Assembly: GCA_951406725.2 (NCBI GenBank)
Contig: OX597814.1
Span: forward strand, 10,974,001 to 11,038,000
Source of the DNA: Octopus vulgaris
Taxonomy: Eukaryota
Direction: 5' to 3'
Length of the DNA stretch: 64,000 bases
The translations under genes and the position numbers were made by a program. Each line of letters opens with the position of its first letter. Position 1 is the stretch's first letter. Positions 18,070 through 46,775 of this stretch are shown piece after piece. Under the pieces are notes generated by a model. It had not been told where the DNA came from and made no database searches. It worked only from the letters and a program-made list of their open reading frames with translations.

Positions 18070-18106
18070 GTATACTGAAGAGGAAACCACGTCCGAAACG
18101 TTATAC
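18070..18106 (+). ncRNA. Minimal hammerhead motif (CUGAAGA core)
   Basis: GTATA-CTGAAGA-GGA-AACCACG-TCC-GAAACGT-TATAC. Stem I is GTATA/TATAC and the ACGT is palindromic. It appears one nucleotide short at the cleavage site. Confidence 0.5.
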
Positions 18107-19675
18107 TATGTTCTTTCTCCTCTTCTAAGCGTTTCTCTCCTAGTTTCCTTTGTGAACCAACTAAAATTTCTTTTTCTTTATTTTCGCTTAGTCGATATAT
18201 ATAAATATATGTTTACGCATTCATACTTTCAGATACACACATTTACATATGGTGTGTCTGTGCCAGTGTTTTATGCACACCATCTGAGTGTGCGTGTGTG
18301 TGTACGCACGCATACATACACACACACATATATATATATATACACATATATATATGTGCATATGTGTGAGTGTATACATGTATGTATCTACATATATATG
18401 TATATTTATATATATATATATATATATATATGTATATTTATATATATATATATATATATATATATCTGTGCACATATACATGTATACTTATATATATATA
18501 TTTATATACATTTATATATATATGTATTTATGTATGTTTGTATGCATGTATATGCATGTTTGTACGTATGTTTGCACATACGCACGCATGAATATTTTGT
18601 TGCTTGCGTCCCAATGAATCTCTGTACAGACGCATGCATACATATATATATATACATACATTCACGTAGAAACATTTATATAATCGTATCAATATATCTC
18701 CGTATTAAATTAAATGCACAACATACATATAATATACAAATCAGCCTTCATCAATAACTACATCACATCACACAGATTCTCAATCTCTCTCTTCACCCTC
18801 CCTTCTTCCTCTCCTCTCTTTCTCTTACTCTCTCCTTCCTTCCCTTCTTCCCTCTCTCTCTCTTTTACTCTCCTTTCTCACTTGTCGCCGCAGTCTTCCT
18901 TCTCTCTCAATTACTCTCCCTAATTCCTTCTTTCTCGTCTTCTCTCCTCTTTGTTCCCTTTCTCTCTCTCTCTCTCTCTCTCCCTCTCTCACTCTGTCTA
19001 TCTATCTATTTATTTATCTATCTCTTTCTTTCTGTTTCCTGTGTCTGTCTAAATCTAAGCTCAAATTCTCTCCCTCCTTCACATACAGCCTCACTCTCTT
19101 CCTCTTTCACTTCTTCTCAATTTATTTACTTCTTTCACGCCGTCTGTTTCTCTTTTCTTCCTTCCCCCTTCTCTCTCTCTCTCTCTCTTTCTCTCTCTCT
19201 ATCTCTTTCTTTCTCTCTCTGTCACTTTCTGCCTTTTTATATCTCCCTCTTTCTTCCTGCATAAATCTTTATCTAAACGCTTTCACTTTCAAACACGAGT
19301 AGTATGTATATATGTATATAGGTGTGAGTGTGTGTGTATGTGTATGTGTGTACACAATTTATGTGCACATATATGTACATGCATACATTCAATTACGTTC
19401 ACACAACACAATTGCAAATACACACACACACACACGCACACAGACACACACACAAACTCACAAACACACAGAGGCACATATAAATATGCATATAAAGCGT
19501 GTGTTCACACAAGCACATCTAGCCACACCGCTGACGTTTGCATTGCTACAAATGCAATCGCCTTCACTCACACCCTAACACCAAATCCCCTTCCTTCCTT
19601 CCTCTTCTTCTCTCTGCTACCTTGCTCTCCCCTCGCCTTCTTCTCACTTCTTCCAGAATCATCATCGGGCTCCAC

Positions 19676-19990
19676 AACACACACACACACACACATACAC
19701 ACACACACACATGCACATACACACACACACACATGCACATACACACACACACACATGCACACACACACACACACACACACACACACACACACACATACAC
19801 ACACATGCACATACACACACATACACACACACATACACACACACACGTACACGCACATACACAAACACATACACACACACATACACACACACACACATAC
19901 ACACACACACACACACACACACACACACACACACACATACACACACACGCGTACACGCACATACACTAACACATACACATATACACACAG
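19676..19990. repeat. Long imperfect (CA)n tract
   Basis: Direct reading. It is representative of hundreds of (CA)n, (TA)n, (GATA)n and (TATG)n tracts not listed individually. Confidence 0.95.
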
Positions 19991-21579
19991 ACCAACACCC
20001 AACGCAACCCACCTCTTTTTCGGTCTCACCAAGTTACAATGTAATTTATAGGCCGAGCGCTTGACACTAGCTCGTACAGAACACGGCAATAATTAGTACT
20101 AAATCGCCAAACATTCCGATCTCCTCCTAGTCAAGGGGCCAAAATGTTTATGTATGCTTAGCAGATGCTCTATCGTTTCGCTCTCACAAAACCCGTCTTC
20201 CTCTACTATGTCTCAATTCCAATGTACCATTTATTTATTTATTTATTTATTTGGTATTTGTGTTCGTTTTATCCTTTCGTTGTCTTTATTTGTATCTGTT
20301 GTATTGTTGTTGGTTGGTTGGTTGGTTGGTTCGTGTCCAAGGCTGGTTTTGTTGCTTTATTTAATTTGTTTTAAATATCCGAGGCAGTGGACATCATCGT
20401 TGTCGTCGTCACCATCATCATTATCATCACTTCATCATCATCATCATCATCACCAACAGCAATAGCATCATCATCATCATCATCATCATCATCATCATCA
20501 TCATCATCATCATCATCTTCAACAATATCATCATCATCATCATCATCATCGTCGTCATCATCATCTTCAACAATGTCGTCAACATCATCATCATCATCAT
20601 CATCATCATCATCATCATCGTCGCTGTCGTCATCATCAACTTCATCTCGTTATCAGTTTTGTTCATTCAAGCACCCTCATTTTCTCTCTCTCCCTCCGTC
20701 TCTCTCCATCTCTCTCTCTTTCTCTCTCTCTCTCACCAAGTAGTTCTACATCTTCATTTCTTTCAGTCAGTATCTTTTCTATTCTTTTTCTTTTCTACCT
20801 TTTCTATCACAATTTTCCTTCTCTTTCTCACTCTCTCATATCCATTCACCCATTTATTCATTCATTAAAGTTATTCTTTCTTTTGTCATTCACGCAATAC
20901 ATAACACTTCTATCGACTCACCCTCTTTGAACGAATCTCCTGTCGTCCTCCGTTTCTCTCTTCTCTTTCTTTCCCCACCCCTCTAACATTCTCTTTCCCT
21001 ACTCTCTCTCCTATGCCTCTCCCTATCCAAGCTCCCCCTTTGTCTTTCTTACCCTTTCTATCTCTCCCTTTCTCCGACATACACATACTTCATACACATA
21101 CGTAAATCCACACCCACTCACTCCCTTTCTTTCAGTCCCGATTTTCCCTACATCTATTTACCTATCTACCTTTTCCATCTCTCCTTAAATAATTATTCCT
21201 TCCTTAATTTATCTCTTTGTTTCAAGCAACCTTCTTTTCAGAAATTGCCATGTAAATGAAGACGCTAACTTACTGCGCATGCGCTGGCCTTATGGGAAAA
21301 AAATGTGGGAGTCAGCTCTCTGATGAATCTCTAAGAAGACAAGAAACTAGCCATATCGATTCTACTTTTCTGTCCACAGAGACATAAACATTTGTGCTGT
21401 GATTATAATTTACGTTAATTTTAACACCAAACTTGAAATTAGAAGTTTAATAAAAAGATATATCTAATCTCTAGATATCACTTTGTGGAACAAGATTAAT
21501 TGCAGAATAAATCCACTTTGGAAACTAGGCAAACTAGTTTAACAGAATCCATGTTTGTTTACACAATAAATAGCGAATG

Positions 21580-21657
21580 TCCGAAGGTGACACGCAGTGG
21601 AACTGAACCTGGAACCATCTGGGTGGGAAGCAAACTCCTTATCATAACCCACGCCTA
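21580..21657 (-). mobile_element. SINE family A, 5' head fragment
   Basis: CACGCAGTGGAACTGAACCTGGAACCAT matches the head at 13430-13460. Confidence 0.75.
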
Positions 21658-44291: not shown

Positions 44292-44339
44292 GTCTTACAG
44301 CTGTTTCCGGGATATTTTATATATCCCTTCATCGGAGAC
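44292..44339 (-). ncRNA. Minimal hammerhead motif (U4C core variant), left arm of palindrome
   Basis: Minus strand: GTCT-CCGATGA-A-GGGATAT-ATAAA-ATATCCC-G-GAAAC-AGCT-GTA-AGAC. Stem I (4 bp) and stem II (7 bp) are perfect, and loop III is the palindrome AGCT. Confidence 0.65.
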
Positions 44340-44554
44340 GGTGTGAGAAGATGGTTAAGCAATAGTTATTCTAGATAAGATATGAAATAGAGAGTGAACT
44401 GAAGAAATGAAAATAGACGTGAGATATGCAGGGATATTGTATCTGTAGTTCCATTATATTCCCTGTATATCTCACGTCTATTTTCATTCATCCACTTCAT
44501 TCTCTATTTCATATCTTATCTAGAATAACTATTTCTTAACCATTTTCTCACATC

Positions 44555-44602
44555 GTCTCCGATGAAGGGATATATAAAATATCCCGAAAACAGTTGTAAG
44601 AG
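44555..44602 (+). ncRNA. Minimal hammerhead motif (U4C variant), right arm of palindrome
   Basis: GTCT-CCGATGA-A-GGGATAT-ATAAA-ATATCCC-GAAAAC-AGTT-GTA-AGAG, a slightly mutated mirror copy of 44292-44339. Confidence 0.55.
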
Positions 44603-46689
44603 CTTCTATTTACAAATGTTCTGAAATCTTTCACAGTCTTTGCTTTTATCTCATTCTGATAATTGTTTTTATATATACATGCTACGTTGGACTCCTCATT
44701 CGCATAATTAACGAACCTGAGCTTAACTATAGTCTGTCCATAGCACTTACTCAGCATTTTGGGTCTTATTCATACCATTACCTCTCATAACCTATATATA
44801 TATATGTATGTATGTATGTATGTATATATATATATATACATACATACGTACATACATACATACATACATATATACATACATACGTACGTACATACATACG
44901 TACATACATAAATACATACATACATACATACGTACATACGTACAGGAGAAGAACAGCATTGACTTTGATCAGAGGTCGGCACAGTCCGTATTGATGTCAG
45001 GGCTAAATGGTTATAATATCGACACCGACAACAACACCAACAACAAGAAGTGTGCAACAGCAACAACAACAACAACAACAACGGTAACAGCATGAAATCA
45101 ATATGGTTTCAATAAATACATTGTTAAGTCGTAGAAATTTATGTCAGCACCAGAATAAACATGTGAATTTTATTCCTATAAATTTTCCTAAGACATGCAT
45201 ACAATATAACGCATGTTATAAAGTATGACAGAGATATTCAGACGGTAATTTGAATTAAGAAGCATAACAAATGGGGTGGCGATTGTATGTACAGATGTGT
45301 GTGTGTAAGTGTGTGTGTGTGTGTGTGTGTGTGTGTGTGTGTGTGTGTGTGTGTGTGCGTGTGTGTACAGAAATAGCCTGTGAATATACTTGCCTAGACA
45401 GATAAACATTTTATTAGCCAAATACTGAAACTTGTTTCTACGTGGCGGTTGCACTATCTCCTAGACATAGCAGCTAAACCTTTCAGGATGTTTGAAGGTA
45501 GTGCGTATTCTTTACTATGCGCATAACGCATAAAGAGGAGAATGCGTCGGTGTGCGAGTGTATGAGCATCTAACTATATTTATGTATGTATATACGTATG
45601 TACATACATATACGCATATGAACACACACACACACATAGACATATATTTATAGAGTGAGAGAGAGAGATAGGTAGAGCAAGGGAGATGAAAATAGATATA
45701 TATATATACATACATAATTCTAGGTGCTATATGTGTATACATAAATGTGAATATATATATATATATGTACATATATGTACATATATGTATATATGTATAT
45801 AATGTATATAATGTATATATATATATATATATATACAAATGTAAATATATAATATACATATATATATATGCATATTTATATCTATATGTATGTATGTGTG
45901 TATATGTATGTATATATATATATAAATATATATTATATATATATATATATATATATATATATATATATATTTATATATATATACACATACATATACACAA
46001 GCAGACATACACACGTAATATATTATATATTACATATGTATTACATATGTAATATATCTTACAAATGTGCGTGAATGTGTGTTATATACACACACTAGAT
46101 CAATCTGCATAAAATTCCCGTTTCGAAATCAGTCAAATGCATTCGATTATTAAAAGACAAGTCCCGTTGGAACATAGTTCATTACACATCACTCATTTTC
46201 TGTTAAATCTAGGGCAACTAACAGTATAAGATGCTAGCCTTCAAGCACCTGTCTATCTATCTATCTATCTATCTATCTATCTATCTATCTATCTATCTAT
46301 CTATCTATCTATCTATCTATCTATCTATCTATCTATCTATCTATCTAACTATCTATCTATCTTTCTATCAGTATTTATAGGCGCAGGTGTGTATACGAAG
46401 TTTGCTTCTCAACTACATGTGTGTATATATATATATATATATATATATATATATATATATATATATATATATATAAAGAGAGAGAGAGAATATGAATATC
46501 CATATTTATCTCACTGTATGAGTGTGTTTGTGTGTGTGTGTTTCTGTGCGTGTTTGGTTGTGTGTCCATAAATGTATACAAGTATGAATACACTACATAT
46601 ATGGGTGGGTTTGCGTATTATATATATATATATATATATATATATATATATATATACCCAAAATAAGCAACAATAATGACTCCGGTAAT

Positions 46690-46775
46690 TTGGTACAATT
46701 GTTTCGCCCTACATCATTTTATTAAAAGTTCTAAGTATTACAACAGATTTAAGATGCTGAGTGCTCGTCAGCCAA
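46690..46775 (-). ncRNA. Minimal type I hammerhead ribozyme with canonical core (Penelope-like pLTR type)
   Basis: Minus strand: TTGG-CTGACGA-GC...long stem II with CATC/GATG...GC-GAAAC-AATT-GTA-CCAA. It has a full CUGANGA/GAAA/GUH core, a 4-bp stem I and a palindromic AATT loop III. Confidence 0.75.

Follow-up and report, generated by a model that had tools for sequence, protein, structure and literature searches.

The 64,000-nucleotide stretch of Octopus vulgaris DNA analysed here, referred to as the window, carries the first coding exon of a Tbx20-like T-box gene and part of the giant intron that follows it, in which seven sequences shaped like minimal hammerhead ribozymes are found. The gene lies on the minus strand and Pfam T-box exons occur on that strand 38-41 kb to the left of the window. 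Residues 1-187 of P0001 (TBX20 isoform X3 of Octopus bimaculoides) align to exon 1 and residues 188-267 to the next exon, at 10935689 of contig C1; the exon 1 donor is of phase 1 and the two exons join in frame. It follows from this alignment that, in the isoform X3 model, the first coding intron is 92.3 kb long, beginning at 53944 and running beyond the left end of the window, and that the minus strand is sense. The placement of the motifs in a giant first intron of a T-box gene, proposed in a first-pass annotation, is thereby confirmed. The sequence FSIAAIL in exon 1 we take to be an eh1-like motif. The features are listed below, with families A to D denoting the repeat families discussed later.

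53945 to 54497, minus strand: first coding exon of the Tbx20-like T-box gene, ATG at 54497, donor after 53945, matching P0001 residues 1-187 at 96.8%.
18070 to 18106, plus strand: minimal hammerhead, antisense to the gene, with a canonical CUGAAGA core, 3-bp helix II, ACGU palindrome and helix I offset by one base.
21316 to 21357, plus strand: degenerate eighth motif, antisense, U16.1 lost and helix II broken; absent from the first-pass annotation.
22909 to 22944, minus strand: family B motif (CUGUUGA, A6U), sense, within a piece of repeat some 140 bp long.
32709 to 32744, minus strand: family B motif (A6U), sense, with 4-bp helices I and II and an ACGU palindrome, within a fragment some 100 bp long.
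39654 to 39743, minus strand: family C motif (CCGAUGA, U4C), sense, with a long loop II and about 78% identity to the family; an old insertion.
44292 to 44339, minus strand: family A motif (U4C), sense, equal to the family majority; in the 3' arm of an inverted repeat in the nascent RNA.
44555 to 44602, plus strand: antisense twin of the preceding family A motif (U4C), with GAAAC box and palindrome each altered.
44232 to 44665, no strand assigned: inverted pair of 5'-truncated family A ends, arms of about 205 bp with 89% identity, one predicted hairpin of -267 kcal/mol.
46690 to 46775, minus strand: family D motif, sense, with a CUGACGA core and ACAAUUGU palindrome, within a fragment some 230 bp long.

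Motifs were sought with a descriptor that demands the type I order, no more than one listed core variant, a helix II of at least three pairs, a palindromic helix III and a helix I. It was composed after the window had been inspected and favours the window in every density comparison; a stricter earlier version recovered none of the seven window motifs and the looser one is used for all counts. Five of the seven are recovered (18075+, 32740-, 39739-, 44335- and 46771-), two more, 22940(-) and 44559(+), come from homology to motifs of a background sample, and the degenerate eighth at 21320(+) emerges with a wider library. Hammerhead-shaped sequence is therefore present at all seven positions originally named, and each has the type I order (CUGANGA / GAAA / NUH). 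Two cores are canonical, three carry a single family-wide variant and two have additional breaks, which supports the caveat, entered at the outset, that most copies are non-canonical and may be dead relics. Helix III comprises 1-2 bp with a palindromic loop, ACGU, ACAGCUGU or ACAAUUGU, and is broken in the 22.9 and 44.6 kb copies. The 22.9 kb copy has also lost G16.2, at a CpG, and its helix I is down to 1 bp; both this copy and that at 44.6 kb are predicted to be catalytically dead.

Three more motifs lie in the same intron to the left of the window, at about 10965370 (-), 10967170 (-) and 10969240 (+) of contig C1. The first is A6C with a long loop, the second U4C and short with a helix I like that of the 18.07 kb motif, the third an antisense family B copy. 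A candidate at 17477(+) was rejected, having CCGAUGA without a GAAA box. At 2818 (+) CUGAUGA is followed three bases on by GAAAC, a core without helix II that is probably due to chance.

Might all these motifs be chance matches in AT-rich sequence? Rfam offers some encouragement to that idea, since no score at the scanned sites exceeds the cut-off. Scanned singly, the 44.3/44.6 and 32.7 kb sites gave no hammerhead match and the 46.7 kb site gave the best Hammerhead_1 (RF00163) score, 14.6 bits (E=1.1, cut-off 34) at 46688-46776. No hammerhead occurs among the 150 of 1051 matches listed from a window-wide scan, the output of which, like that of a repeat finder, was dominated by microsatellites. 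Genome-wide, RF00163 gave six matches among 73 scored of 263,217 rough candidates, figures from which no genome count is derivable. In addition the 18.07 kb motif is single-copy, a genome search returning one candidate, itself, and no family. Set against this are the shuffle controls, one per set. The background sample consists of 80 systematic 10-kb stretches (L129-L208) taken at fixed steps from 25 contigs, 799.8 kb in all; after shuffling it yields two matches as opposed to 34 in the real sequence, and the shuffled window none, so the motifs are not products of chance. From family to family the sequences of helices I and II change while their pairing is preserved, and the motifs conform to the published minimal-hammerhead consensus. 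Chance is refuted for six of the seven motifs, and as a general explanation we regard it as scarcely credible.

Those six fall into four dispersed repeat families, with top matches spread over many chromosomes; counting the 18.07 kb motif separately there are five, in agreement with the original estimate of at least four. First-look candidates number 3,140 for family A (44.3 and 44.6 kb; roughly 90% identity in the top copies), 2,768 for family B (22.9 and 32.7 kb), 119 for family C (39.7 kb; about 78% identity) and 2,041 for family D (46.7 kb; 92-98% identity). For each family 40 candidates were scored and 30 loci kept, copies being chosen by their likeness to the window motifs. The copies have a common 3' end and a variable 5' extent, with truncation to 100-260 bp. 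Longer ones of all four families carry endonuclease remnants upstream, on the hammerhead strand. In family A a GIY-YIG remnant precedes the motif on the hammerhead strand at locus L235, with a CxCX5C linker and YIGST and without CCHH. Inspection of translations reveals a remnant in family D (L124 and L103) that also has the CxCX5C linker and lacks CCHH, its Pfam GIY-YIG match (E=0.006) lying below the cut-off. Family B shows a CCHH-type remnant (L066, L053) for which Pfam gave no GIY-YIG match. In family C the link is seen in one of 30 loci (L074), with spacing like that of family A; most matches to the sequence upstream of family C were inverted copies. These upstream remnants indicate that the motifs are 5'-truncated ends of Penelope-like elements (PLEs) of the known minimal-hammerhead class, an assignment that on sequence grounds appears firm for families A, B and D and depends on one locus for C. 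Dispersed families, GIY-YIG remnants and consensus fit together support the earlier suggestion of minimal type I hammerheads derived from PLE pseudo-LTRs.

The minimal hammerheads of metazoan PLEs (Cervera and De la Pena 2014, PMC4209133) are known in the molluscs Lottia and Crassostrea and occur mostly as solitary truncated copies, with some inverted pairs 100-700 bp apart; single motifs show no cleavage and dimers low cleavage. The octopus motifs share the CUGANGA box, an extra base before G10.1-C11.1, long helix II, GAAAN-palindrome-NUH arrangement, short helix I and U-rich 5' flank, as well as the solitary or inverted disposition. They differ in that families A and C have U4C, and family B A6U, as family-wide states, and in an estimated 110,000-190,000 copies compared with a published 2,000-9,000 per genome, although the octopus descriptor is looser. 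Families A and D resemble, by description, the Hydra clade of PLEs, which includes the Octopus bimaculoides family Hydra-1_Obim (Craig et al. 2021, PMC8557442), in their C-terminal GIY-YIG without CCHH, CxCX5C linker, CxxC and CxH motifs, 3' hammerhead and (TA)n neighbours, whereas the CCHH-type endonuclease of family B would place it in a different clade. Non-LTR retrozymes also bear type I hammerheads with dimer-dependent cleavage, and their genomic copies are very numerous, with 126,247 in axolotl (PMC7229834; bioRxiv 10.64898/2026.07.22.740005), but they are head-to-tail tandem units of 170-400 nt. Self-BLAST over 128 kb found no such tandem units around the octopus motifs, only single or inverted copies, and these belong to different families. 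About 43% of Xenopus retrozyme copies overlap introns, a depletion after normalising (bioRxiv 10.64898/2026.07.22.740005). The intronic hammerheads of amniotes (RECK, C10orf118) are likewise type I and probably retroelement-derived, but single, ultraconserved and active as monomers, unlike the multi-copy, minimal and variant-core motifs of octopus (PMC3088659, PMC6155905). Among the papers listed in literature searches on octopus and on cephalopods, none is devoted to octopus hammerheads.

Do the window motifs constitute an array? With the descriptor, 64 kb is expected to hold 2.72 matches and the window has five (P=0.14, Poisson and bootstrap). When homology is added the sample contains 53 matches (6.6 per 100 kb), with 4.24 expected in 64 kb and seven found (P=0.137); the wider library gives eight against 4.32 (P=0.07). 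Six other T-box loci, represented by 20 stretches that lie between T-box exon matches and are assumed to be intronic, hold eight motifs (8.2 expected) or 11-14 (about 13 expected), which is background. The sampled density corresponds to about one minimal hammerhead per 15-25 kb and extrapolates to some 112,000 (77,000-158,000) descriptor motifs, or 186,000 (139,000-243,000) including relics, in the genome. About one 64-kb window in seven would show seven motifs and some 6,000 comparable windows are expected genome-wide. The description of the motifs as an array is not upheld.

Five of the seven motifs are on the gene's strand, as had been reported, but this does not amount to a bias (P=0.45), and with the antisense relic at 21320 the count becomes five of eight. 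The sense share is 7/10 or 7/11 in the Tbx20 intron, 6/11 or 6/14 in the other T-box loci and 13/25 over all seven loci, a sample too small to reveal a mild bias. Set beside the sampled genome background, then, the intron is at or borderline above average density (P=0.05-0.09) and displays no strand bias. It has to be asked whether most long octopus introns hold same-strand, loop-compatible copies, some of which, A6U and U4C forms included, dimerise and cut nascent RNA as a genome-wide layer that takes in Tbx20. We judge this very unlikely.

The reading we prefer, and hold to be highly probable, is that the motifs are short 3' ends of PLEs from at least four dispersed families, residing in the 92-kb Tbx20 intron without a significant excess over average genome density and likely to be inert passengers. 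Reverse transcription would start at the 3' end of the element and usually halt early, so that the hammerhead-bearing end would be the part inserted, adjoining microsatellites and in some cases as two copies in inverted orientation. The tandem repeats of the parent element would supply two identical hammerheads, which would cleave after pairing through the palindromic helix III. A solitary copy, or one sequestered in a hairpin, would lack a usable partner and would decay, first at CpG sites.

Several observations weigh against this reading. The whole intron has about twice the background density, at borderline significance (8 versus 3.9, P=0.047; 10 versus 6.1, P=0.09; 11 versus 6.2, P=0.05). 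The 28.7-kb span first delimited gives P=0.008 taken by itself, a value weakened because the matches themselves picked the ends of the span. The 18.07 kb motif lacks an identified family, the endonuclease link of family C comes from a single locus, and assignment to PLEs is by endonuclease plus hammerhead in loci reaching 1.5 kb from each match. A helix II pair that is A-U in the family C majority is U-A in the 39.7 kb copy. Finally, core positions outside CpG vary less than others (32/1274, 2.5%, versus 627/15345, 4.1%; P=0.004, columns with more than 30% variation having been dropped as subfamily markers). Selection on the parent elements explains this low variation, though selection on the copies could do so too.

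C4 (U4C) is found in 25/29 family A and 16/29 family C copies and U6 (A6U) in 28/29 family B copies, and they are thus states of the families rather than private decay. The 34 cores of the systematic sample comprise 16 canonical, 11 A6U, six U4C and one C3U; in that sample A6U occurs in family B variants whichever base stands at N7 (U, C, G or A), with canonical relatives alongside. At the C4-G5 CpG a C-to-T change is seen in 4/29 (A) and 11/29 (C) copies and the disabling G5-to-A change in 5/29 (A) and 6/29 (C), both of which are expected from decay. The U4C and A6U core strings were not found in two of the three supplement files of PMC4209133, and Luense et al. (2017), on dimeric variants, may describe such cores; in a literature search for A6U in hammerheads the sole match concerned twister. 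Either the A6U form is functional in dimers, or the elements can spread without the ribozyme.

A modified version of the relic interpretation would allow the intact sense copies, at 46.7 and 32.7 kb, to cleave occasionally with family-mates in other transcripts, in the absence of any selected function. Potential mates are plentiful, with thousands of candidates in families B and D, and 27/29 family D copies retain all 13 core and helix III positions. Yet even linked dimers are weak in vitro (PMC4209133), partners that are not linked would be dilute, and the 46.7 kb copy, which alone among the sense motifs of the window has a canonical core, carries a private A-G mismatch in its helix II and has no compatible partner there. 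Such cleavage seems improbable.

The most specific proposal was that the 39.7 and 44.3 kb copies, on the same strand, pair through their palindromes in the nascent RNA, cleave, release about 4.6 kb of intron and regulate Tbx20. The two do have ACAGCUGU in common and lie 4.6 kb apart, as claimed. The shared palindrome would form an 8-bp helix III duplex (predicted -11.1 kcal/mol). Helix I, which from the strand order we assume to form between partners in a double hammerhead, could have four and three pairs (predicted -3.0 and -0.2 kcal/mol). The 44.3 kb sequence is that of the family A majority. U4C reduces activity in vitro but leaves enough for a viroid, A6C being a low-activity variant (PMC3088659), and amniotes have domesticated intronic hammerheads (PMC6155905). 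Opposing these points, two random motifs share a palindrome with a probability of 0.34, mostly of the 4-nt ACGU type, both partners carry U4C, and helix I is short at 3-4 bp across partners. The 44.3 and 44.6 kb copies form the two arms of the 205-bp, 89% inverted repeat, an arrangement seen at 7/29 other family A loci. The antisense arm is transcribed just before the 44.3 kb copy and the ribozyme lies in the predicted hairpin with a mean unpaired probability of 0.06. Opening the ribozyme there would cost a predicted 77 kcal/mol, and the copy is probably buried. In a related organism (D) the 39.7 kb copy and its flank are covered by a single contig that differs at 25 of 280 nt (9%), compared with 6-9% in neighbouring contigs; in this one organism and for this one copy, conservation is not above that of the flanks. 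Moreover, in published work splicing remained intact after an intron was cut by a slow hammerhead (PMC2995048). The proposal is in our view extremely unlikely, and more generally the window motifs are, from their sequence, unlikely to cut the Tbx20 transcript. With density and orientation at background, the 44.3 kb copy predicted to be buried, cores and helix I compromised and no extra conservation at 39.7 kb, a transposon-derived RNA-processing layer is not supported.

No other compatible sense pair was found in the window. A 46.7 and 44.3 kb heterodimer was rejected on inspection, helix I being incompatible, as was a pairing of the 32.7 and 22.9 kb copies, owing to the lost G16.2. For the 44.3 kb insertion no contig bridging to unique flank was present among those listed. 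A search of sequencing runs listed no RNA run containing the sequence. One run, guessed to be RNA, gave intron pieces as contigs at depth 3-8 and is uninformative on RNA ends or level.

RNA editing is a feature of coleoids, and the 205-bp near-perfect intronic hairpin (44232-44665) would be a likely A-to-I editing substrate. If it is edited, changes in GAAA would further disable the 44.3 kb motif.

Other features of the locus may be mentioned. Two T-box genes face one another about 720 kb apart, at 10128665-10211846 (+) and 10932724-11028497 (-) of contig C1, both with very long introns of about 81 and 92 kb. A 229-codon stop-free frame occupies non-repetitive sequence at 38217-38906 (+), a region covered by single-copy contigs from three other organisms with 3-6% difference. 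Short open frames at 17002-17322 (-) and 28318-28760 (-) resemble LINE 3' ends. A very high-copy short interspersed repeat, present several times in the window (at 41048-41810 and again at 13191-13495 and 59348-59652), dominates read depth in all four sequencing runs mapped.

The hammerhead motifs are real and represent a known type; their number and orientation are unexceptional for this genome, and most likely they are inert. An intronic regulatory array is not a reading that can be sustained when roughly a seventh of all 64-kb windows should match this one. The octopus genome would contain some 100,000 minimal hammerheads or more, a number similar to that in axolotl, and the spread of successful families with U4C or A6U cores may bear on whether PLEs need hammerheads at all.

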